The translations under genes and the position numbers were made by a program. From the sequence record DRR723986_833: 64,000 nt of DNA, one strand, 5' to 3'. The notes below the pieces were generated by a model, which worked only from the letters and a program-made list of their open reading frames with translations, did no database searches and had not been told where the DNA came from. Positions 25,837 to 36,922 of the stretch are shown piece by piece. How positions within the stretch are numbered: the first letter of the stretch is position 1; every line of letters starts with the position of its first letter.

Positions 25837-27291
25837 ATGAATCGTCCGTTTTACCACAGTCGCCGTCGTTTACTTTCTCACCTCATTGAGCGGGGAATGC
25901 GGTTATCGGCGCGACGCTATACCCGTCGCACAAAGCGAGTTGACAGCCCAGGCGTCGAGACCGCCACGGGAAATATCGCCGTGGGGCAGCCCACGCGCCC
26001 GGAAGATTTTCGCCCGCTGGAAGACGCCTGTTTTCAGAACCCCTATGCCTTTTACAAAATGCTGCGCGACGACTACCCGGTTTACCAGTTGCCCAATGGC
26101 ATTTACTGCCTATCCCGGTATCAGGATATTGTTGAGGTGAGCCGGAACACTGACGTTTTTTCGTCTACCCATCAGGGCGTGATTGCAGGGCTAAAGCCTG
26201 GACACAGTGTCGAGCGCGAGGCGGCGAAGTTGCGCCCCCTTGAAATGATGGGAGTGATACCCAGCGACGTGTTGGCGCTGTCTGATCCGCCGGCCCATAC
26301 CGCCGAGCGCAAGGTCGGGCATCGCGGTTTAAATGCGCGGGTGGTCAAGGCCATGGAAGACGAGGTGACGGCACTTTGTCGGGAAATGATGGATGCGGTC
26401 ATCGACAGGGGGGAACTTGAGTTTATGCGCGACTTCGCCTGGCGGTTGCCCATGCGACTGATCATTCGCATGCTGGGCTTTCCCGAAGCAGACTATGAAA
26501 AAATAAAAGACTGGTGTGTGCACGGTATTGCCACACAAAGCGGTATCGCTCAGGGGGCGGCGCTAGCCCGCAGTCAGGCAGAGCTGGTGGTGTTTTATCG
26601 CTATTGCTGGCAGCAATTTATACTGGCCAAGCGGCGGCCACGCGATGATCTTAGCGCGGTGTTTGTGCAGGCGGCCACGGGCGAAGATGCGGTGATGGCT
26701 GAGCACACCGCGGTTTCCGCGATAATGCAGTTGCTGATCGCCGGGTCGGACTCCTCCGCGACCAGTATGGGAAATGCGCTGAAATTGTTAATTGAAAACC
26801 CCGATATCCAGGCGCAGCTGCGCGAGGATTTGGATGGCTTGCTGCCGGTCTTTATCGAAGAGGTCTTTCGCCTTGAAGCGGCCTTTCAGGGGCATTTTCG
26901 TTGGACCAAGAGCGCGACGCAATTGCACGGTGTACACTTGCCCGCCGACAGCCGGGTGTTTCTAATGTGGGCGGCGGGGAATCGCGACGAGCGCGTATTC
27001 ACGGCGCCCGATGACATTCGTCTTGACCGCAGCAACGGCAAAAAACACCTGACATTTGGTCACGGTATACACGCCTGCATTGGTCGCGAGCTGGCGCGCA
27101 TGGAAATTCGTATCGTATTGCGTGAGTTTCTGCTGCGCACCGAAAACCTATCCCTGGCGGGACCATCCCCCTATGTGGCGTCGATGTTTGCACGCACATT
27201 GCAGTGCTTGCCGATCCGCTTTACCGCTAAGCGCGGGCTCGCTGGCGGTGGTGGGGGAGCCGAGCGTCGTGACCACGCCGGAGCGGCATAG
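25837..27291 (+). CDS. Cytochrome P450 (start uncertain)
   Basis: NPY.FY..LR, DPP.H, I-helix AGSDSS, EEVFR (ExxR), heme motif FGHGIHACIG. Confidence 0.93.
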   Translation: MNRPFYHSRRRLLSHLIERGMRLSARRYTRRTKRVDSPGVETATGNIAVGQPTRPEDFRPLEDACFQNPYAFYKMLRDDYPVYQLPNGIYCLSRYQDIVEVSRNTDVFSSTHQGVIAGLKPGHSVEREAAKLRPLEMMGVIPSDVLALSDPPAHTAERKVGHRGLNARVVKAMEDEVTALCREMMDAVIDRGELEFMRDFAWRLPMRLIIRMLGFPEADYEKIKDWCVHGIATQSGIAQGAALARSQAELVVFYRYCWQQFILAKRRPRDDLSAVFVQAATGEDAVMAEHTAVSAIMQLLIAGSDSSATSMGNALKLLIENPDIQAQLREDLDGLLPVFIEEVFRLEAAFQGHFRWTKSATQLHGVHLPADSRVFLMWAAGNRDERVFTAPDDIRLDRSNGKKHLTFGHGIHACIGRELARMEIRIVLREFLLRTENLSLAGPSPYVASMFARTLQCLPIRFTAKRGLAGGGGGAERRDHAGAA

Positions 27292-27326
27292 TTGTGTTGG
27301 CTACAAATAAGATAAGTCGAGGTGAT

Positions 27327-27935
27327 ATGAGTGGCAGTTTGAATCGCCAGCGTTTTGTGGATGCTGCGCTAGACGTGATTGCCGATGTTGGCGTTGATAA
27401 ATTATCGATGCGCCGCGTTGCCAGTCAGCTGGGGGTTTCCGCAATGGCGATGTACAAGCATTTTGCGAATAAAGATGAGTTGCTGGGGGCAGCCTTTGAA
27501 GAATTTATCGCTCGCGCGGAGGTGCTGCCCGATGACCAATTGCCCTGGGATGAATGGCTGATTGTGAGCGCGCGGGGCATGTACCAGGCGCTGTGTAGCG
27601 AAATGTCCTGGGTGCCCTGGCTGGGAAAGTTGCGCCTTGGCGGCAACGCGCTCCGGGTGACAGAACGCTTTGCCGCCAAGCTGGCGGAAAGTGGATTGGC
27701 GACAGATGCCTCGGTGAGGGTCTATATGGCGACTATTCAGCTCGTGGTCGGCGCTGTGTGTATGCGGGCCTCTTTGCATGCCGGCCATTGGCAACAGGGC
27801 GAGGCTGCGGCGGCGATGCCTGAGGCACTGTCGCCGGAGATCTTTACAGGCTTGGCAAATGCGGTTGCTCAGGAGCCCATCGACATATCCTTACCCCTGT
27901 TGATTGAGGGGGTTCGCCACCAATTACTGGCTTAA
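27327..27935 (+). CDS. TetR family transcriptional regulator
   Basis: LSMRRVA..LGVS.MA.Y.HF..K HTH; GAGGTG RBS before ATG 27327. Confidence 0.9.
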   Translation: MSGSLNRQRFVDAALDVIADVGVDKLSMRRVASQLGVSAMAMYKHFANKDELLGAAFEEFIARAEVLPDDQLPWDEWLIVSARGMYQALCSEMSWVPWLGKLRLGGNALRVTERFAAKLAESGLATDASVRVYMATIQLVVGAVCMRASLHAGHWQQGEAAAAMPEALSPEIFTGLANAVAQEPIDISLPLLIEGVRHQLLA

Positions 27936-29414
27936 TGCCGCCTGCCGGCCCGCCAGTCGACCGAAAAATGTCGCATCACCCACCGACATGCCGCTGGCGT
28001 ATCCCTTTGCGGTGCGCGGCAGGCCCGCGGTTGCACGGCCTGCGGCGAAGAGGCCGGGGATCGCCCGGTTGTCGACATCGAGTACTTCGCCATTACAACG
28101 TGTTTTTAAGCCGCCGAGCGTAAAGATTAGCGGGCCATTGGTGCCCGGCATAATGATTGCGCGCATTTCACTGGCGGAATACTCCAGCAGGGCGTAAGGC
28201 GGTTTATTGAGCGGCTTTAGCCATTCGGAGGTTTTGTGGAAGAGCGGGTCGCGCCCTTCACTGGCATGTCGATTAAAATAGTCGACAGTATCTTCCAGCG
28301 CGCCGGGGGGGAAGGGGGCTTCTGATGCCACTTCAGCGATGCTGTTACCGCTGGCGATCAGCAGTGCACGCTCGAGGTAATGTGAGGCCTCGTAGTCCTC
28401 TTCCTGCACAAGTAAATAGAATTTTTGCTCAGGCTGCTGGCAGGAGTAATGCGCTAACCGGGCAAGGTAGGCATCTTCATTGATGTAACGCTGGCCACGC
28501 TGGTTGAGCAGCAGGCCGTAGGTAAGCTTGGCGGGTGGGTAGAGTGGGAACGACATGAAGGCCTGATCCATATTGATGGCTTGGCCACCCGCCGCGAGCC
28601 CAAGCTGGATACCGTCGCCCATATCATAGCTATTGCCGTAGGGCACCGCGTATTGATGAATCTCTGGCAGATATTGGCGGGTCATCGCCTCATTCATAAC
28701 AAAGCCGCCGGTGGTCAACACCACCCCGCGCGTGGCGCGAATCGCGATTTCGCGGTTATCGTGTTTTGCGATAACGCCACAGATTCGCCCCGTATTGTCC
28801 GCCAGCAGTGCCAGTGCCCGGCAGTCGTTAACAACGTCCACTCCCGCTTCATCAACGCGCTGCATAATTGCATCCATAAAAATTTTGCCGCCTTCGTCGC
28901 CTTCCTTTGAGGGGACATGGCCACGCGGCACTGGCTCAGCGATGGTATTGAAGGGGTAAGATTTTTCATTGCCGGTAAACAGCAGCGATTCGTCGCTGAG
29001 TGGCACCACGGTGCGCTCATGCATTACCGCACGCTTATAGCTAACACCCAGTGACTCTACCCAGTCGAAGTGAGCGGCCGCGCCCTCGGCGTAACAGCGA
29101 ATTTTTTCGCTGTCGCCGTAGGGGCCCAGCGCTTCGTGTAGGTAGGCGAGCAGGTTTTCAGTACTGTCGTGTATGCCCAGGTCTTTCTGCAGCGCGGTGC
29201 CGCCACTGCCGCCGAGATACATTTCGCAGCTGGATAACGCGGTGGCACCGCCACCGGCGCTGGCGCGCTCAATAATACAGACCTTCGCGCCGGCCGCGGC
29301 AGCCTCAAGGGCCGCGGCAGCGCCAGCGCCCCCGTAGCCGCAAATTAACACGTCGGTGGTGATATCAAAGTGAGTAACGGATTCAATCGGGCGTATGCGG
29401 GCGTTCGCTGCCAT
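27924..29414 (-). CDS. FAD-dependent oxidoreductase, 3-ketosteroid dehydrogenase/flavocytochrome c family
   Basis: GYGGAG dinucleotide motif, GGATALS, V.L.TGGF, FTLGGL, IPGLFAAGR, YASG.S.G. Confidence 0.8.
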   Translation of the reverse strand: MAANARIRPIESVTHFDITTDVLICGYGGAGAAAALEAAAAGAKVCIIERASAGGGATALSSCEMYLGGSGGTALQKDLGIHDSTENLLAYLHEALGPYGDSEKIRCYAEGAAAHFDWVESLGVSYKRAVMHERTVVPLSDESLLFTGNEKSYPFNTIAEPVPRGHVPSKEGDEGGKIFMDAIMQRVDEAGVDVVNDCRALALLADNTGRICGVIAKHDNREIAIRATRGVVLTTGGFVMNEAMTRQYLPEIHQYAVPYGNSYDMGDGIQLGLAAGGQAINMDQAFMSFPLYPPAKLTYGLLLNQRGQRYINEDAYLARLAHYSCQQPEQKFYLLVQEEDYEASHYLERALLIASGNSIAEVASEAPFPPGALEDTVDYFNRHASEGRDPLFHKTSEWLKPLNKPPYALLEYSASEMRAIIMPGTNGPLIFTLGGLKTRCNGEVLDVDNRAIPGLFAAGRATAGLPRTAKGYASGMSVGDATFFGRLAGRQAALSQ

Positions 29415-29458
29415 CTTTCAGGACCTCATTATTGTTGTTTGTGACGTCGATAATTTTA

Positions 29459-29476
29459 ACTTATCATTTGATAAGT
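29459..29476. promoter_or_regulatory. Candidate TetR operator ACTTATCA-TT-TGATAAGT
   Basis: Perfect 8-bp inverted repeat between the divergent flavoprotein and TetR genes. Confidence 0.65.
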
Positions 29477-29503
29477 ATTAATGTCGAGTCAAAAGAGCGC
29501 CCC

Positions 29504-30109
29504 ATGGCTAAGCCGTCATCACGAAATCACATTATTGCTGTTGCCACCGAGCTGTTTGCCGAGCGCGGTCTGTCGGTGTCGCTGCGGGAGGTCAATGAGG
29601 CGGCGGGTCTGAGCGCTGCGGCCGTTCACTATCACTTTAAAAACAAGGGGGCGTTGATTGATGCGGTGCTTCGCAGCCGCATGCGACCCAAGGCCGAGCG
29701 AGAAGGGCAGCTACGACAATTGGCCACCGCGCCCAAGGTCACCATCGACGATATTGTTCGGACCTTGCTTGCGCCGCTGCGCGAGGTGTTGTCGGAAGAC
29801 GCCATCGCGGGGCGGCAGTATGCCAGGGTGATTGCCCGGGTGTACGCCGAGCAGTCGGAAGAGCTTCCCTTGCTGGATGAATTCCTGTCGCCAGCCAATG
29901 CGCTGATTGCCATGCTCGCGCAACAGCGCCCAGATCTGTCATTGCTGCAGTGCCGACTCCGCTATGGCTTCGCTGTGGAAGCGATGCTCAACACACTGTC
30001 TTGCGTACACTTCCCCAGCCCCTTTGGTGGTGATGAGGTGGCGGACGATATGGCCATGTTGTTTGATGAATTGCAGCAGTTTTTGGTGGCGGGTTTGTCG
30101 GCGCCATAG
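29504..30109 (+). CDS. TetR family regulator (PsrA-like C-terminus)
   Basis: A.ELFAERG..VSLRE....AG...AAVHYHF..K; ATG 29504. Confidence 0.88.
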   Translation: MAKPSSRNHIIAVATELFAERGLSVSLREVNEAAGLSAAAVHYHFKNKGALIDAVLRSRMRPKAEREGQLRQLATAPKVTIDDIVRTLLAPLREVLSEDAIAGRQYARVIARVYAEQSEELPLLDEFLSPANALIAMLAQQRPDLSLLQCRLRYGFAVEAMLNTLSCVHFPSPFGGDEVADDMAMLFDELQQFLVAGLSAP

Positions 30110-30204
30110 CGGATCTGTGAATTCACGTTCTATTGCGAATAGCCACCACCAAAGCATTCTGTTATTAGTGTCTGGGAGTTTGTTTGCCAGCAAAGGATAG
30201 CGGT

Positions 30205-32463
30205 ATGTCCACCGAGCTAAATCAGCCTTGGTATGAGCGCGCCATTGCCGGAGTAGATCGCCGGCATTTCGTCAATAACAGTCAAGCTGACCTGGTCGTC
30301 GGGCGCAGCATTCCCCCAAAAGACCTGGTTGCCCGCAGCTTAGCCTTGCTCACCCTGCCGGAAAAGGCCCGCGTGCTTCATCTGGGGGCGGGTGTGGGAT
30401 ATGCCACGGCGGTGTTGGCCCAGATTGCCGATCGCGTGATTGCTATCGAAAGCAATCCTGCGCTGGCCGAGATTGCTAAACAGAAGTTGGCCGCGTTAGA
30501 TGCGAGCAATGTTGAACTGCGCGTTGGCGACGCCAGTGCCGGGGCACCTGAGGACGGCCCTTTTGATGTAATTTGGGTGTCGACGCCGGCGATTACGGAA
30601 CGTGAATCCCTGTGGGAGCAGCTCGCTGAGCGCGGCCAGTTTCTCTGCATGGAAATGGGTGAAGCCTCGCGGTTGGTGCTGGTGAAGTACCAGAACCGGG
30701 GACATCATAAAATCGCGCGCACCGAACATGGCTATGTCGATATCGCTCCGACGGAAGACCAGATATTTGTCGAGCTCGGCATGGTAACGCCTGAGGTGCT
30801 GGCACAGGCGAGGGCGCAGGCGGAAAAAAATAACAGCTTGATTGTCGATGAAATCAGCAAGCTGCAACACCTTGATGAATTAAAGCTATATCGCTCAATG
30901 GCTAAGCAGTGTGGCCTGCCGTTGCAAAGCATGGAGCAACTGCTCAGTAAAGTTGATCCCCGGGTTTTTTCGCGGTTTTCACAGGCATTTCTGGATAATT
31001 TGCAGGCCATTCCCCTGTGTGTTGAGCGCGGGCGTTTGCTGGTTGCCTGCACACGGCCAGGCACCTCGATGCGCGAAATTCAGCTGGTTTTTCCCGAGTT
31101 AAAAATCGAGAAAATACTGGTTACCCCCGTTGATTATCGACGCTTGTGGAGCTCGCTAACACGCGGCGCGAAAGGGGGGGAAGATGCTGGTGAGCAAGAA
31201 CGACCGTCTGACGACAAGACCGATAAAGACCTACTGGACAGCGAGACCGGTGAACCTGATGCGCGCCTGGTCGCCGTCTATGAGGCGCTGCTGCTTGACG
31301 CTGTCGCGGACCGCGCCAGTGATATTCACTTAGAAAAATACCGAGACCGGGTGCGGGTACGGCTGCGGGTGGACGGCGAGTTGCGTGATTTGCACCACTA
31401 CCAGATTAGTGCTGCGGGCTATCGCGGTTTAGTCAATGTGGTGAAACTTCGCGCCGAAATGAACATTGCCGAGCGGCGTTTGCCCCAGGGCGGTCGGTCG
31501 CAGGTGCGGGTAGGGGACGCGCGTTTCGATTTGCGGGTTCAGGTGCAGCCCTCGCTGCACGGCGAGCACGTGGTTATCCGTTTGCTGCCGCAAAATTCGC
31601 CGCTGATCAGCATCGACAGATTGGGGATGTCGCCGCTGGTGGCAGGGCACTATCGCCGCTTGCTGAACAACCCCGCAGGTTTGGTGTTGGTGGTGGGGCC
31701 AACCGGGTCGGGTAAAAGCACCACCTTAAATGCCGGCCTGCAGATGCTTGCCGACGATGCGCGGCGAAAAGTCATTACCGTGGAAGACCCCATCGAGTAC
31801 TCCATTGACGACATTCAGCAGACGCGTGTGCGGCCCGAGATTGGTTTCAGTTTCGCCGATGCGATGCGCTCCTTTGTGCGTCAGGATCCCGATGTCATTT
31901 TGGTGGGAGAAATTCGCGACCACGAGACGGCGCTGGAGTCGATACGCGCTTCGCAGACGGGGCATGTTGTCCTGTCCACACTGCATTGCAACGATGCCAT
32001 TGATGCCGTTCAGCGTTTATTTGATCTCAATGTGCACCCCAACTCGCTGGCAAGCGAGTTGCTCGCAGTGATTGCCCAGCGCCTGGCGAAACGTATTTGC
32101 CCGCATTGTAAATACGAGGCGGAGCCCGAGCCGGACATACTCAAGGAACTCTTTCCCGGCGACGCGCCCAAGCACTTTCGTAGCTACAAAGGCAAAGGTT
32201 GTGAGCGCTGTCATGGCAGTGGCACGCACGGGCGGGTGGCAGTGGTCGAGTATTTACAACTGAACGCTGAGCTGCGCGACAGTATTTCCCGCGGTCGTCC
32301 TGTGGGTGAGCTGCGTGCTCAGGCGCTGGATTCAGGGTTGATCACGATGCGTGACTCCGCTCTCGACCACGTAATTGCCGGCAACATCCCTTTGTCTGAA
32401 TTACCCCGTATTTTGCCGGAGGAGCGTATGGCACCGGAGAAGCGCGGCCAGTGGCAACGCTAA
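30205..32463 (+). CDS. Fusion of PIMT/Pcm-like methyltransferase domain, MshEN-like domain and GspE/PilB secretion ATPase
   Basis: N-term VLHLGAGVGY..AVLA, GDA..G.P..GPFDVI, EQL; C-term ASDIHLE, GPTGSGKST, TVEDPIEY, RQDPDVILVGEIRD, TGH.VLSTLH, CPHC...CERC. Confidence 0.85.
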   Translation: MSTELNQPWYERAIAGVDRRHFVNNSQADLVVGRSIPPKDLVARSLALLTLPEKARVLHLGAGVGYATAVLAQIADRVIAIESNPALAEIAKQKLAALDASNVELRVGDASAGAPEDGPFDVIWVSTPAITERESLWEQLAERGQFLCMEMGEASRLVLVKYQNRGHHKIARTEHGYVDIAPTEDQIFVELGMVTPEVLAQARAQAEKNNSLIVDEISKLQHLDELKLYRSMAKQCGLPLQSMEQLLSKVDPRVFSRFSQAFLDNLQAIPLCVERGRLLVACTRPGTSMREIQLVFPELKIEKILVTPVDYRRLWSSLTRGAKGGEDAGEQERPSDDKTDKDLLDSETGEPDARLVAVYEALLLDAVADRASDIHLEKYRDRVRVRLRVDGELRDLHHYQISAAGYRGLVNVVKLRAEMNIAERRLPQGGRSQVRVGDARFDLRVQVQPSLHGEHVVIRLLPQNSPLISIDRLGMSPLVAGHYRRLLNNPAGLVLVVGPTGSGKSTTLNAGLQMLADDARRKVITVEDPIEYSIDDIQQTRVRPEIGFSFADAMRSFVRQDPDVILVGEIRDHETALESIRASQTGHVVLSTLHCNDAIDAVQRLFDLNVHPNSLASELLAVIAQRLAKRICPHCKYEAEPEPDILKELFPGDAPKHFRSYKGKGCERCHGSGTHGRVAVVEYLQLNAELRDSISRGRPVGELRAQALDSGLITMRDSALDHVIAGNIPLSELPRILPEERMAPEKRGQWQR

Positions 32464-32478
32464 TTGCGAGGACCAGCA

Positions 32479-33570
32479 ATGACTGAAAAATCAATTCAAC
32501 GCCCGGCGGCAGAGGATGCCTACCGCGATGAGCTTGCGCTGTTAAAGCAGCGGGATCAGGGGCCGGTGCCGCCCGGTTGGTGCCTGTCTCCCTACGCCGT
32601 TGAGCAATTTATAATGGGAGATGCCGAGTTAGGTATCGAGCGTAAGTTTGTCGCGCCCCAGGCGCTGCTTAGCCGCGTGATTATTTCGTTGGCCACCAAC
32701 CGAGGAGTCATGTTGATTGGCGAGCCGGGCACGGCTAAGTCTTGGTTGTCAGAGCTATTGGCCTGTGCCATCTCTGGCCATTCCAAACTAACGATTCAGG
32801 GCGGTGCGATCTCTGATTACCGCCAGCTACTCTACGATTGGAATCAGGCCATTTTGCGGCGCGATGGCCCGTGTCGTGAGGCCTTGATTCCGGGGCCTAT
32901 TTATCGCGGGATGGCAGCCGGGCAATTGGTGCGCTTTGAGGAATTGGCGCGTTGCCCGCAGGCGGTGCAAGACGCCATCCTATCGGTAATGTCTGAGCGG
33001 CAAATGCAGATTCCCGAACTGGAAGGAGAGGATGCGACGCTCTATGCGCGCGAGGGTTTCAATATTATCGCCAGCTCTAACTCTCTGGATCGCGGCCTGT
33101 TTGATATGAGTGCGGCACTGAAACGCCGGATGAATTTTGAGACCATCGCGGCGATTAATGACCTTGCCGATGAAATGGATGTTGTCCAGCGCGAGGCGGG
33201 GAAATTACTTCGCGGCAGTGGTGTCTCGATGGATATCGAGCCGATGATCGTCGAGATGCTGGTAACGGTATTTCACGAACTTCGCAACGGTCAAACTCTG
33301 AGTGGCCGCAGTACTGACCGTCTCGCGGCGGCGGTAATGTCCACCGCGGAAGCGGTTTCGGTGTTGCATGCAATGGCGGTATACGCCTATTACTACCGCG
33401 ATGGTGTTATGCAACCAGCCGACTTGATCCACTTCCTGCTGGGCGCGGCGCTAAAGGACAATCCGCAAGACCGGCGGCGCGTGCGCCATTACTTCGAAAC
33501 AGAAGTGGTGAACAAGCAGGGCAGTCACTGGCAGGCGCTGTATGAACAGCGCCATTTACTAAAAGATTGA
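32479..33570 (+). CDS. MoxR-family AAA+ ATPase, YehL-like
   Basis: RP.AE..Y..EL..L, P.GW.LSP, Walker A GEPGTAKSWLSE, FEELARC, DRG..DMS.ALKRR, MSTAEAVSV. Confidence 0.85.
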   Translation: MTEKSIQRPAAEDAYRDELALLKQRDQGPVPPGWCLSPYAVEQFIMGDAELGIERKFVAPQALLSRVIISLATNRGVMLIGEPGTAKSWLSELLACAISGHSKLTIQGGAISDYRQLLYDWNQAILRRDGPCREALIPGPIYRGMAAGQLVRFEELARCPQAVQDAILSVMSERQMQIPELEGEDATLYAREGFNIIASSNSLDRGLFDMSAALKRRMNFETIAAINDLADEMDVVQREAGKLLRGSGVSMDIEPMIVEMLVTVFHELRNGQTLSGRSTDRLAAAVMSTAEAVSVLHAMAVYAYYYRDGVMQPADLIHFLLGAALKDNPQDRRRVRHYFETEVVNKQGSHWQALYEQRHLLKD

Positions 33571-33616
33571 TCGAGCCACCACCGCTCACCGCTCCGGTGC
33601 TTGGTGGCGGCAGCGT

Positions 33617-35296
33617 TTAGCTTGCTTTTAGCTGCTCGGCATATTGGCTTTGCGCTGCGGCGTTGATAACGGCCTGTAAGGACGCACTCACCACATCGTT
33701 GTTCACCGCCACGCCGATATAGCGCTGCTTGTTAATGCTCAGCAACACGTAGGCTATCGCTTCTGACGCAGTGCCTGATTTCAGGGCGTGCTCGCTGTAG
33801 TCAATCACTTCCACCGCGTCGCCATAGCGCTGTTGCCAGGCATCGGTCAGAGCACTGATCGCGCCATCGCCTTCACCTTCTAGGGAAACCGCTTGGCCGT
33901 TGATATGGGTGACCAGCTTGAGCCGGTCGTGACCGTGATGACTGGCATTGTCCTGACTAATGGAGAAATTCTGCAGTGACTGCTGCCCCTCAGGCTGAAG
34001 GTAACTGGCGGCGAAGACCGACCAGATCTCGGCTGCACTGAGCTCTCCCGATTGGGCCTCGGCTTCGGCCTGTACTTTTCGGCTGGCGTCAATTTGCAGC
34101 CAGCGCGGCATATGCAGGCCGTAGTCGTTCTCAAGCACCCAGGCGACACCGCCCTTGCCAGACTGGCTGTTAATCCGTATCACAGCCTCGTAGTTGCGAC
34201 CCAGGTCAGCCGGATCAATAGGCAAGTAGGCAACGTCCCACTGAGCATCTTTGTCCTGCTGGGCGAGGCATTTTTTTATCGCATCTTGATGGCTGCCCGA
34301 GAACGCCGTGAACACCAACTCGCCGGCGTAAGGGTGGCGGGGGTGCAAGGGAATCGCTGTGCAGTGCTCAACCACCGAGATGATTTCGTCCATATCGGAG
34401 AGGTTCAGCTTGGGGTCAATGCCCTGGCTATACAGATTCATCGCCATAGTGACGACATCCATATTGCCGGTGCGCTCGCCATTGCCAAGCAAGGTGCCCT
34501 CAATGCGGTCGGCGCCTGCCATCAATGCCAGTTCGGCAGCCGCAACCCCGCAGCCGCGATCATTGTGAGTATGAATCGACACCCGGTAGTCTGCGCGGTA
34601 CTGACTGTGGCGGCAGAAGTACTCGACCTGGTCGGCGAATACATTGGGAGTGGCGCATTCTACGGTCGCGGGCAAATTGACGATGAGAGGTTTACCACTG
34701 TCACGCCACTGAGCGATAACCGCATCGCAGACCTCAACGGCGTAGTCGACTTCGGTACTGCTAAAACTTTCGGGTGAGTATTGAAAGGTCCACTGGGTTT
34801 GCGGGTAGCGCTCAGCGTATTCCCGAACCCATTTCGCCCCTTGAACGGCGATGGCTGTAATACCCGCTTTGTCGAGACCAAATACCCGTTCGCGCTGCAC
34901 GGGGCTGGTGGAGTTGTAAACATGGACAATGGCGCGCTTGGCACCCTCCAATGCTTCGAAGCTGCGAGCAATCAAGCTCTCGCGCGCCTGCACCAAAATT
35001 TGGATAGTGACGTCGTCAGGTATACGTTGCCCCTCTATCAAGGCGCGTACAAAGTCGAAATCGGGCTGGGATGCAGAGGGAAAGCCAACTTCAATTTCCT
35101 TAAAACCGAGCTTGACCAGCAAGTCCCACATACGCAGTTTTTGTTGCACGGTCATCGGTTCAACCAGGGCTTGGTTGCCATCGCGCAGATCAACTGAACA
35201 CCAATCGGGGGCGCGATCGATAACGCGGCTTGGCCACTGTCGATCATCTAAGGCGATGGTGGGGGTGGGGCGGTATTTGCTGTGGTCAAAAGTCAT
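33617..35296 (-). CDS. leuA: 2-isopropylmalate synthase (LeuA type 2)
   Basis: WCSVDLRDGNQAL, YSPESF, NLPATVE, HTHNDRG, GNGERTGN, AFSGSHQDAI, NSQSGKGG. Confidence 0.95.
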   Translation of the reverse strand: MTFDHSKYRPTPTIALDDRQWPSRVIDRAPDWCSVDLRDGNQALVEPMTVQQKLRMWDLLVKLGFKEIEVGFPSASQPDFDFVRALIEGQRIPDDVTIQILVQARESLIARSFEALEGAKRAIVHVYNSTSPVQRERVFGLDKAGITAIAVQGAKWVREYAERYPQTQWTFQYSPESFSSTEVDYAVEVCDAVIAQWRDSGKPLIVNLPATVECATPNVFADQVEYFCRHSQYRADYRVSIHTHNDRGCGVAAAELALMAGADRIEGTLLGNGERTGNMDVVTMAMNLYSQGIDPKLNLSDMDEIISVVEHCTAIPLHPRHPYAGELVFTAFSGSHQDAIKKCLAQQDKDAQWDVAYLPIDPADLGRNYEAVIRINSQSGKGGVAWVLENDYGLHMPRWLQIDASRKVQAEAEAQSGELSAAEIWSVFAASYLQPEGQQSLQNFSISQDNASHHGHDRLKLVTHINGQAVSLEGEGDGAISALTDAWQQRYGDAVEVIDYSEHALKSGTASEAIAYVLLSINKQRYIGVAVNNDVVSASLQAVINAAAQSQYAEQLKAS

Positions 35297-35337
35297 GTCA
35301 GTTCCTGTCGTGAGGCTTGGCCTCATAGTTGTTTTTT

Positions 35338-35365
35338 AGCCCGCGGGTAGCGGGCTGTTTTTTTT
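35338..35365 (+). terminator. Intrinsic-terminator-like hairpin on + strand, antisense to the leuA leader
   Basis: AGCCCGC-gggta-GCGGGCT followed by G and T8. Confidence 0.5.
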
Positions 35366-35593
35366 CAGCCTTGTGGGCCTTTTAACGCGTCGGAGTCGCG
35401 GGGTGTTGCGGCTCGTTCGGTGAGGATGGAAGGGGTAACTTCCTGTAGTTGGGCTACGTGGAACAGTGTAGGGAAAACGGTAGGGCAGGCGATTGCGAAG
35501 TGCTGGTTAATTTGGGGTGAAAATTCTTTTTTATTGCCAATATTGCTTTTATTTTGGAATAATATTGCTATTGATCGTTATTTGGTGGTTTTT

Positions 35594-36055
35594 ATGAATA
35601 TAGATCGCTATGACAGAGCAATTTTGAGTGCCCTGCAGAATGACGCGCGCCTGAGTAACCAGGAGTTGGCTGATCATATTGGCTTGTCGCCGTCGCCCTG
35701 CTTGCGGCGGGTGCGGCGCCTGGAGGAAAGTGGCTTAATTGAAGGTTACCGGGCCCTGCTCAATGCCCGCCAACTGCAACTTAAGTTGATGGCCTTCATC
35801 CATATCAGCATGGACAAGCACACGCCTGAGCGCTTTGAGAATTTTGAGAAGAAAGTGGCCAATTGCGACGCAGTATTGGAGTGCCACCTGATTACCGGCC
35901 AGGATGCCGACTACCTGCTAAAAGTGATCGTCGAAGATATGGACGGGTTTCAGGCCCTGTTGCTGGAACAGATTACTCGAATAGAAGGCGTAAGCGGCGT
36001 ACACTCGAGCTTTGTAATGAAGTCGCCAATCAGTAAAACGGCGCTACCTATTTAG
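35594..36055 (+). CDS. Lrp/AsnC family regulator, divergent from leuA
   Basis: DRYDRAIL..LQ.DAR.SN.ELA..IGLSPSPCLRRV, ECHLITG..ADYLLKV. Confidence 0.93.
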   Translation: MNIDRYDRAILSALQNDARLSNQELADHIGLSPSPCLRRVRRLEESGLIEGYRALLNARQLQLKLMAFIHISMDKHTPERFENFEKKVANCDAVLECHLITGQDADYLLKVIVEDMDGFQALLLEQITRIEGVSGVHSSFVMKSPISKTALPI

Positions 36056-36080
36056 CGTAAAATGACGAAGGGGTGATGAT

Positions 36081-36446
36081 ATGGGCGGTCAGTTTATTGC
36101 TTCGCTTGAAGAGGTGAAGGACGGTGAATTTCTCAAGCGGGAAGTCGATGGCAAAAAGGTATTGCTAACCCGTGTGAACGGGCAAATCGCCGCTGTCGAA
36201 AACCGCTGCCCGCACCTGGGCTTGCCGCTGGCGAAAGGGGAGATTTGTGACGGCGCGGTTACCTGCCCTTTTCACGGTAGCCGCTTTGATTTGCTCAGTG
36301 GTGAGAACCTGGATTGGACGCACTCATTCTTTGGGGCAGAGCTGCCTAAATGGAGTCATAAGCTGATTGCATTGGGTAAAGCCCCGCAAGATCTACATAC
36401 CTTTGATATCGAGTGTGTTGATGGTGCGGTGTATCTGCGCGGGTAA
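36081..36446 (+). CDS. Rieske [2Fe-2S] ferredoxin-like protein
   Basis: NRCPH and CPFHGSRFD Rieske motifs. Confidence 0.9.
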   Translation: MGGQFIASLEEVKDGEFLKREVDGKKVLLTRVNGQIAAVENRCPHLGLPLAKGEICDGAVTCPFHGSRFDLLSGENLDWTHSFFGAELPKWSHKLIALGKAPQDLHTFDIECVDGAVYLRG

Positions 36447-36484
36447 GGTATGTTGTGCTTTTTGTGTAAGGGCTTGAGATAGTA

Positions 36485-36922
36485 ATGGCGGTAGATATTT
36501 CCGTTGTCCCGATTACCCATGCCATTCAGCAGGCGGTTGCGCCGGTTTTTTTGCTGGCGGGCATCGGTGCAATATTAAATGTGCTCACCAATCGCTTAGC
36601 CAGGATTATTGACCGGTCGCGTAATTTGCACGCCAGGCTCGAGATGGTGGGGCGGGAGAAATCTGAGACAATACACGCTGAGTTGGTTGTGCTCACCAAG
36701 CGCGCTCGGGTGGTTAATCGCGCTATTGGCTATGGCACGGTGAGTGCCTTGCTGGTGTGTACGGTGATTGCGACGCTGTTTATCAGTGCTGTGGGCGAAT
36801 GGAATAGCGGTATGTTTGTCGTCGCGCTGTTTGTGTTGGCAATGTTGTTTCTTATTGTTTCGCTTTTGAGTTTCTTGCGAGAGATTCAAATGGCGATGAA
36901 AGTGATCCTCAACGGGCCGTGA
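36485..36922 (+). CDS. DUF2721-like membrane protein
   Basis: APVFLL.GIGA.LNVL.NRLARIIDR.R and FLREI motifs. Confidence 0.7.
   Translation: MAVDISVVPITHAIQQAVAPVFLLAGIGAILNVLTNRLARIIDRSRNLHARLEMVGREKSETIHAELVVLTKRARVVNRAIGYGTVSALLVCTVIATLFISAVGEWNSGMFVVALFVLAMLFLIVSLLSFLREIQMAMKVILNGP

Follow-up and report, generated by a model that had tools for sequence, protein, structure and literature searches.

A gene in which a methyltransferase-type domain is joined in frame to a PilB/GspE-type ATPase lies at positions 30205 to 32463 of a 64,000-nucleotide stretch of DNA from sequence record DRR723986_833, the whole of which is referred to here as the window. This open reading frame (ORF) is one genuine gene, and the family to which it belongs is widely conserved but uncharacterised. 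Together with the adjoining gene for a MoxR ATPase, it makes up an accessory cassette that moves between lineages and is dispensable. The fusion protein and its partner may act as a cytoplasmic switch dependent on ATP and S-adenosylmethionine (SAM), with a target outside the cassette, instead of serving as a dedicated secretion motor; the chances of this reading being right are about even. The features of the cassette are listed below, with the evidence for each in brackets.

30110..33618, plus strand: accessory two-gene cassette of ~3.5 kb, between the stop of a tetR-family gene (30107-30109) and the convergent stop of leuA (33617-33619) (empty site in genome G001)
30205..32463, plus strand: fusion gene, 752 amino acids (aa), with PCMT-like domain, MshEN-like domain, linker and PilB/GspE-type ATPase (Pfam, relatives, alignment)
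30241..30723, plus strand: PCMT-type class I methyltransferase domain, aa 13-173, SAM motifs kept and isoaspartate-pocket signature changed (P37) (Pfam, PDB, column comparison, AlphaFold2 (AF2) model)
30760..31170, plus strand: MshEN/GSPII-like domain, aa 186-322, without the motif for cyclic di-guanosine monophosphate (c-di-GMP) (Pfam MshEN E 6e-7, regular expression)
31171..31257, plus strand: variable acidic linker, aa 323-351 (predicted local distance difference test score (pLDDT) < 50, poorly conserved columns)
31261..32403, plus strand: T2SSE ATPase core, comprising N2 and the C-terminal domain (Pfam, PDB matches, invariant motifs)
31696-31722, plus strand: Walker A, residues 498-506 (invariant in 28 sequences)
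32098-32211, plus strand: four-Cys site C632/C635/C666/C669 (invariant in 28 sequences)
32398..32460, plus strand: clade-specific, near-invariant C-terminal tail, aa 732-752 (28-sequence alignment)
32479..33570, plus strand: YehL-type MoxR AAA+ ATPase gene, 363 aa (AAA_5 E 2.1e-27, YehL similarity, AF2, Foldseek)

The fusion gene and its domains

From the ATG at 30205, the ORF translates on the plus strand to 752 aa with no internal stop, as described in a sequence-only reading of the window made before any database search, and every motif string quoted in that reading occurs in the translation. The ORF lister also offers an extension to a TTG at 30184. The ATG yields the length of the closest relatives (751-752 aa) and has an AGGA 7 nt upstream. 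Three Pfam domains are recognised in the protein: PCMT (PF01135, residues 13-173, E 1.9e-22, 80.5 bits with a cut-off of 20.3), MshEN (PF05157, residues 238-322, E 6e-7, 29.8 bits with a cut-off of 23.1) and T2SSE (PF00437, residues 353-733, E 2.9e-108). All three domains named in the architecture search that the sequence-only reading had proposed are recovered. Its description of a class I methyltransferase of the PCMT family fused in frame to an ATPase is borne out by the Pfam and PDB matches.

The same arrangement recurs well beyond the window. Of the 120 best relatives listed from the database (52-99% identity, ~750 aa), 119 combine PF01135 with PF00437, and the one that does not is a 608-aa record titled 'partial'. 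In the ESM Atlas, the same three domains are found in clusters of 52, 70 and 178 members, 92-96% of which carry PCMT. Window positions 29500-34200 are spanned without a break by contigs from two further public runs, X1 (31.9 kb) and X12 (197 kb), which show 46 and 73 substitutions, respectively, and no indels. A metagenome contig of run X2 (record 13) extends over 30074-31045 and hence over the domain junction. Misassembly is excluded, since 119 of 120 relatives share the fusion and the contigs of other runs are gapless.

The architecture had also been called unusual. It is recurrent in public data and not rare; what holds of that description is that the literature searched contains no characterised example. 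Neither the pair of domains nor the pair of genes is characterised in any paper found by full-text search, although supplementary tables might list the architecture. The family is thus present in sequence databases yet unstudied in the literature searched, and public names for its proteins are generic ('ATPase, T2SS/T4P/T4SS family', 'PilB', 'protein-L-isoaspartate O-methyltransferase', 'MoxR-like ATPase'). In a class-wide sample of 400 genomes no match reached E <= 1e-150, a result from which rarity cannot be inferred because two candidates were scored per genome and no known-positive genome was included.

The N-terminal domain is closest by sequence to solved protein-L-isoaspartate methyltransferases (PIMTs), namely 4l7v (E 3e-19, ungapped), 8qby chain t (E 1.7e-16) and 3lbf, and AF2 models most of it with a pLDDT of 84-92. 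A search of residues 1-190 against 1.84 billion representatives returned 7580 matches at E <= 0.001, mostly of ~200-230 aa and 35-45% identity; for the free-standing enzymes compared, identity is about 35-40%. Sixty-seven representatives of 195-240 aa, out of 150 listed, were aligned as a free-standing comparison set with the N-domains of 28 fused sequences, the family alignment to which all counts out of 28 refer. The features associated with SAM binding are common to both groups: the glycine loop followed by Tyr, the acidic residue 82, D109 and the P-F-D-x-I motif. Within the family, G61, G63, G65 and Y66 are invariant, E or D occupies position 82 in all 28 members and P119/D121/I123 of the P-F-D-x-I motif are kept in 26-27 of them.

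The substrate side of the domain has changed. In solved PIMTs, the stretch Thr-Ile-Ser-Gln-Pro has an isoaspartate-binding role, and its pocket Ser contacts the isoaspartyl carboxylate in PIMT-peptide complexes. Before motif I, free-standing relatives read Gln-Thr-Ile-Ser-Gln-Pro, whereas the family reads His/Arg-Ser-Ile-Pro. Position 37, which aligns without gaps to the pocket Ser of 4l7v and 3lbf, is Pro in 28/28 family members and Ser in 43/67 free-standing relatives, and the flanking Gln (45/67) and Pro (58/67) of the latter are lost in the family as well. A further difference precedes the glycine loop, where 62/67 free-standing sequences have E or D and 24/28 family members have H or Q. 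The scores also fall short of the NCBIfam cut-offs for Pcm equivalogs (98.2 vs 188 for NF001453; 80.0 vs 159.05 for TIGR00080). A separate canonical pcm is present in the two cassette carriers checked, G040 and G025 (216-220 bits), and in the cassette-free genome G001 (214-220 bits for all three).

Compared with Pcm/PIMT (4l7v, 3lbf, 1jg1), the domain thus retains the class I fold, the glycine loop with its Tyr, the acidic residue after strand 2 and P-F-D-x-I, but differs in the Ser-to-Pro replacement, the lost Gln and Pro, the predominant His or Gln before the glycine loop, the low equivalog scores and in being fused instead of free-standing. Of the Pcm/PIMT pattern named in the sequence-only reading, the SAM-binding part therefore stands and the substrate-pocket signature, like membership at the level of the Pcm equivalogs, does not. 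Judged by these columns, the N-domain probably still binds a nucleotide cofactor on a PCMT-family fold, and the conclusion suggested by its pocket is that it would not be a protein-repair enzyme.

The second-best of the solved matches, 8qby chain t, belongs to a set of entries (also 9g83, 9g9y, 9g9z and 9gae) named protein-L-isoaspartate O-methyltransferase, with a chain letter that suggests a very large complex. We take this chain to be an accessory subunit of bacterial respiratory complex I, in which case it would be a precedent for a structural PCMT fold.

As motors, PilB/GspE-type ATPases are anchored to a platform in the membrane, and the N-terminal sensor domain known from them is a c-di-GMP receptor. 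In the fusion protein, an MshEN-like domain lies between the methyltransferase-type domain and the ATPase. MshEN binds c-di-GMP through a tandem 24-residue motif, according to the paper describing it (PMC5013675), and a term search of that paper's main text did not find 'methyltransferase'. Using the pattern as given there, a regular expression matched the strict motif in 0/28 family rows and the relaxed motif, which is the authors' own pattern, in 1/28, a single copy in L008. The expression works, since it found a copy in 4/24 non-fused relatives. Sensing of c-di-GMP by the fusion protein appears unlikely because the binding motif is missing from the family.

The ATPase part is intact in sequence. 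Walker A, Asp box, Walker B, His box and the four Cys, all reported as kept by the sequence-only reading, are invariant in 28/28 family sequences. The C-terminal 567 residues match solved PilF (3.3e-94), GspE (3.8e-93) and PilB (2.5e-88) about equally, within an E range of 3e-94 to 2e-86. A Foldseek search with the full-length model of the fusion protein returned ATPase matches only, headed by PilF, PilB and GspE. That AF2 model has a predicted template modelling score of 0.33 and a low-confidence ATPase half, and no inter-domain arrangement can be read from it. Equivalog cut-offs are missed for GspE (TIGR02533, 411.6 vs 630.25), for PilB (TIGR02538, 417.3 vs 675.65) and for TfpB.

A quick maximum-likelihood tree of the last 400 residues of 52 proteins places the 28 fused proteins and three non-fused ones, L009 from Gemmatimonadales and L010 and L011 from Myxococcota, on one side of a branch of 2.3 with a Shimodaira-Hasegawa-like approximate likelihood ratio test value of 100. 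All other PilB-, GspE- and MshE-like proteins compared, including three of G001, lie on the far side. By this tree, the fusion ATPase belongs to a deep, separate clade. The C-terminal tail, in which E732, L737, R741, A743, P744 and E745 are invariant in 28 sequences, also occurs in the non-fused sisters of L009-L011, whereas none of the PilB, GspE and MshE-type proteins compared has it. Like PilB, PilF and GspE (PDB 6f8l, 5tsh, 4pht, 1p9r), the fusion protein has an MshEN/GSPII-like N-domain, N2, a RecA-like C-domain with Walker A/B and Asp/His boxes, and a four-Cys zinc subdomain. Unlike them, it carries an additional N-terminal PCMT-type domain and the clade-specific tail, lacks the c-di-GMP motif, scores below the equivalog cut-offs in a deep clade of its own, and has no platform, pilin or secretin genes nearby.

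When the L009 protein was used as query, a large non-fused sister group of 560-600 aa emerged. Among the best 120 relatives of this protein, 111 are without PCMT and 9 carry it, at similar identity, and no other N-terminal domain was found in its place. The sisters (~560-600 aa; Gemmatimonadota, Myxococcota, Planctomycetota and others) resemble the fusion proteins in the MshEN-like and ATPase parts (54-63% identity), in the tail and in clade; they differ in lacking the PCMT domain, and L009-L011 have no YehL-type partner.

The surroundings of the sister genes differ from one another. Each of the two Myxococcota loci (L010:5968-9272 and L011:5908-9269) contains two tandem T2SSE genes, in which a 519-539-aa copy with a stronger MshEN match (5e-15) but only a partial T2SSE match precedes the 582-601-aa clade member; upstream of the pair are two paralogous proteins, the larger with an fn3 domain. 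In the Gemmatimonadales locus, a gene that overlaps the end of the clade member (L009:7685-9142, plus strand) encodes IRK_C, the C-terminal domain of inward-rectifier potassium channels (E 1.8e-22), which is to our knowledge unusual in bacteria.

The YehL-type partner and the accessory cassette

The partner gene, which the sequence-only reading had not covered, begins 15 nt past the fusion stop and has a GAGGA 5 nt before its ATG. Its product is 51% identical to YehL of Escherichia coli K-12 over 357/363 residues (E 3e-125). In an alignment of 25 family members with a mean column identity of 69%, the Walker A, Walker B and Arg residues do not vary and an N-terminal extension is conserved. The AF2 model has a pLDDT of 90.5, and its top Foldseek matches are NorQ (E 6.7e-11) and CbbQ2 (2.7e-10), followed by McrB. 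The partner is an intact MoxR-class AAA+ ATPase of the YehL subfamily. NorQ and CbbQ (PDB 9qh4, 6l1q) are its best fold matches, with template modelling scores by target of 0.71-0.81, but their identity to it is 14-20% and they lack its N-terminal extension. They also act via a VWA adaptor, NorD or CbbO, whereas no VWA-domain adaptor was found in the cassette or among the neighbours scanned. A complex prediction combining fusion residues 186-752 with the partner, with the PCMT domain left out, scored 0.09 against a mark of 0.32, a value that speaks neither for nor against binding.

The YehL of E. coli K-12, a putative MoxR AAA+ ATPase encoded in the yehLMPQ operon, has the same length as the partner, but its followers YehM, the VWA protein YehP and the SWIM protein YehQ are absent here, and the neighbour is instead the PCMT-ATPase fusion. 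The fusion protein shows no similarity to YehM (E 1.3). The literature searched holds no functional study of YehL, listings merely naming the genes. The E. coli cluster, with its VWA and SWIM proteins, lies at L036:8597-14945. On plasmids, among them rhizobial ones, YehL-like MoxR genes with ~50% identity to the partner are repeatedly found beside DUF5682 genes (matches H9-H12). MoxR ATPases of the YehL branch appear to form an exchangeable module, occurring with two or more distinct sets of neighbours.

Pairing of the two genes was assessed in 28 related loci fetched from species genomes, eight of which have a fusion-family member (L001-L008), with the partner sought by tblastn. It lies directly downstream in 7/8 fusion loci, four from Zhongshania, two from Geobacter and one from Cellvibrionaceae; tblastn did not find it in the planctomycete locus L008. 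A census of 40 genomes from the taxonomic family of the nearest genome found the fusion in nine, all within a single genus (9/28 genomes, compared with 0/12 in three other genera). The partner accompanies it in 8/9 of these, always adjacent, and occurs in none of the 31 fusion-negative genomes; the ninth, G030, without a detected partner, is 86% complete and in 440 contigs. Identities of fusion and partner to the window copies fall in step (80/81, 80/79, 77/78, 74/76, 58/60, 55/60 and 49/57%), as expected for co-inherited genes. An all-vs-all ORF comparison of 11 loci and the window leaves the fusion and the partner as the only shared genes. The cassette in other Gammaproteobacteria and in Geobacter is likewise a self-contained, horizontally mobile pair.

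In the two Geobacter loci, a ~1010-aa gene directly follows the pair (L007:2979-6017 and L005:3379-6411, both on the plus strand). It encodes a winged-helix Trans_reg_C domain, an AAA_16 ATPase of STAND type and TPR repeats, and could be a third, lineage-specific component or a regulator.

The accessory state of the cassette, likewise outside the sequence-only reading, is seen directly in G001, the nearest genome, in which 61% of the words sampled from the window recur. Its contig C4 matches window positions 27000-30108 and 33619-36500 at 98% identity, the junction pieces giving 97.5% and 95.9% by direct BLAST. Where the window has the 3.5 kb of 30110-33618, a spacer of 116 bases stands in G001, with no relation to either end of the cassette. 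The cassette lies exactly between the tetR and leuA stops, because the alignment of the G001 flanks ends there. The same polymorphism is found in nature: in two contigs of the marine metagenome run X2, the match to the window stops at 30105 and is followed by 16 letters that agree exactly with the empty site of G001, and other X2 contigs carry the cassette. Both alleles being present in X2 contigs, carriers and non-carriers occur in one sample.

The cassette has the G+C content of its flanks. Comparison of the 116-bp spacer with both cassette ends gave only chance matches of 9-12 bases and no repeat or target-site duplication, and no integrase was seen around the cassette in the window scan. 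Among 72,556 plasmid and 50,697 phage records, none covers >= 80% of the protein, and neither collection contains the fused form. A scan of 29900-33750 yielded no promoter-like site and one terminator-like site, under the expectation from shuffled sequence.

Neighbourhoods, covered by a census of the 11 loci and the 40 genomes, place the fusion among housekeeping genes in the window and related loci. No platform protein, pilin or secretin was found among the neighbours scanned there. In G001, the canonical PilB-, GspE- and Tad-type ATPases each have a T2SSF gene alongside, and all eight T2SSF matches of that genome are on contigs C10, C8 and C3, with none on C4, the contig of the empty site. 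The fusion ATPase is an orphan, away from filament genes. The term secretion ATPase, applied to it in the sequence-only reading, survives as a fold label only, given the missed GspE/PilB cut-offs, the separate clade and the lack of secretion or pilus genes nearby.

Possible functions of the pair

If the fusion and its partner form an ATP- and SAM-dependent switch, the C-terminal part would assemble into a zinc-containing hexameric ATP-driven motor, as suggested by its likeness to solved relatives. The N-domain, to go by its conserved motifs, would bind SAM or S-adenosylhomocysteine without repairing isoaspartate. It would act as a regulatory or carboxyl-methylating head, placed ahead of an MshEN-like domain that lacks the c-di-GMP motif. 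The partner would remodel or activate the fusion protein or its client, since MoxR ATPases act on proteins encoded beside them, as in the NorQ-NorD and CbbQ-CbbO pairs.

Several observations weigh against such a switch. L008 and the non-fused sisters have no partner, so the ATPase clade can work without it. The layout of an extension ATPase (MshEN-like domain, N2 and four-Cys subdomain) fits docking onto a resident platform of a pilus or type II secretion system (T2SS), and hence a filament motor. SAM binding is predicted from motifs alone, and the H or Q before the glycine loop could weaken or alter binding of the ligand. The separation of the clade comes from a quick tree only. Evidence for expression is thin: four contigs of the metatranscriptome run X14 lie on 30529-31783 and are a weak hint of transcription, because DNA can occur in such libraries and may have been carried over.

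The layout argument leads to an unlikely alternative, in which the fusion docks as an accessory extension motor on a type IV pilus or T2SS platform encoded elsewhere and drives or tunes filament assembly; the head would sense metabolism, and the MoxR protein would serve as a chaperone of assembly. The full extension-ATPase layout, including the four-Cys subdomain and all catalytic boxes, is retained, and PilF, PilB and GspE come first in both the sequence and the fold comparisons. G001 has PilB-, GspE- and Tad-type systems whose platform genes could be shared, and an extra motor of this kind exists in Acinetobacter, where TfpB is a paralogue of PilB. However, the canonical ATPases of G001 adjoin their own platform gene and the fusion never does in the loci read; its PilB, GspE and TfpB scores are far under the cut-offs, and the branch of 2.3 parts its clade from the PilB, GspE and MshE types. 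Specific docking is also hard to reconcile with the relatives at 49-60% identity in Cellvibrionaceae, Geobacter and Planctomycetales, because the platforms of these groups differ. That the N-domain is instead a true repair enzyme, an active isoaspartyl methyltransferase tethered to an ATPase and repairing damaged proteins, perhaps the motor itself, is very improbable. Its PCMT score above the Pfam cut-off and its PIMT-like closest structures are outweighed by the invariant Pro in place of the pocket Ser, the absent flanking residues, the missed Pcm equivalog cut-offs and the canonical pcm retained in the carrier genomes checked. An assembly or frameshift artefact joining two genes, in favour of which nothing was found, has a negligible chance of explaining the data, considering that the same fusion occurs in hundreds of independent records and that two independent contigs cover the whole stretch without indels.

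A conflict or defence module would be a small mobile system of two ATPases and a methyltransferase-like domain that sense or act on components of invading phages or plasmids. Presence or absence is polymorphic at strain level, with both alleles in one natural sample, and the distribution of this compact, self-contained unit is patchy and crosses phyla. At domain level, PADLOC matches the PCMT region to mad2 of MADS (E 2.1e-19), and the partner weakly matches the MoxR of MoxR-vWA conflict systems (PF20030, E 6.4e-4, or 4.3e-5 in Geobacter). These signals are countered by the absence of any PADLOC match to a known defence system as a system, by the lack of a nuclease or other effector domain in either protein, by the plasmid and phage records without the fused form, and by surroundings in which no integrase or defence island was seen. 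Only one of ten neighbours read in related loci has a nuclease-like domain, the rest being housekeeping genes. The paper on MoxR-vWA conflict systems, as far as a term search of its main text goes, names neither YehL nor a PilB, GspE or methyltransferase partner. MADS itself was rejected as an identity, as only positions 271-391 of the 492 in mad2 match, corresponding to the methyltransferase core, and the mad3 and mad8 matches are confined to the P-loop (E 1e-5 to 2e-4). The defence reading, in our judgement distinctly unlikely, is possible but unsupported, because the mad2 match covers the methyltransferase core only and one neighbour in ten is nuclease-like.

In a more far-reaching and improbable reading, a PilB-like hexamer wholly removed from filament assembly, equipped with a SAM-dependent carboxyl-methyltransferase head and a YehL-type MoxR remodeller, may constitute a self-contained, horizontally mobile ATP-gated machine for protein modification or for conflict (anti-phage or anti-plasmid), of a kind not yet described. 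The MANTIS preprint reports ATPase-activated DNA methylation by unrelated proteins; this is an analogy at most and is not used as evidence.

The family is distinguished by a SAM-type domain ahead of the position where the c-di-GMP sensor of its relatives sits, with the c-di-GMP motif missing, and by a MoxR ATPase of its own that is always present in the Gammaproteobacteria and Geobacter loci read. Its function, once known, would reveal either a new regulatory input into pili or secretion, linking them to methyl-cycle metabolism, or a motor fold used outside filament assembly. The YehL branch of MoxR ATPases, uncharacterised and also represented in E. coli K-12, would thereby gain its first client. 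Natural comparisons are possible because carriers and near-isogenic non-carriers coexist in marine samples.

Genes upstream of the cassette

Upstream of the cassette, window positions 25837-29414 contain a cytochrome P450 gene, a tetR-family gene and a divergent gene for an FAD-dependent oxidoreductase. A second tetR-family gene, which abuts the cassette, follows this cluster, and the cluster is also present in G001. The region looks like an ordinary catabolic cluster.

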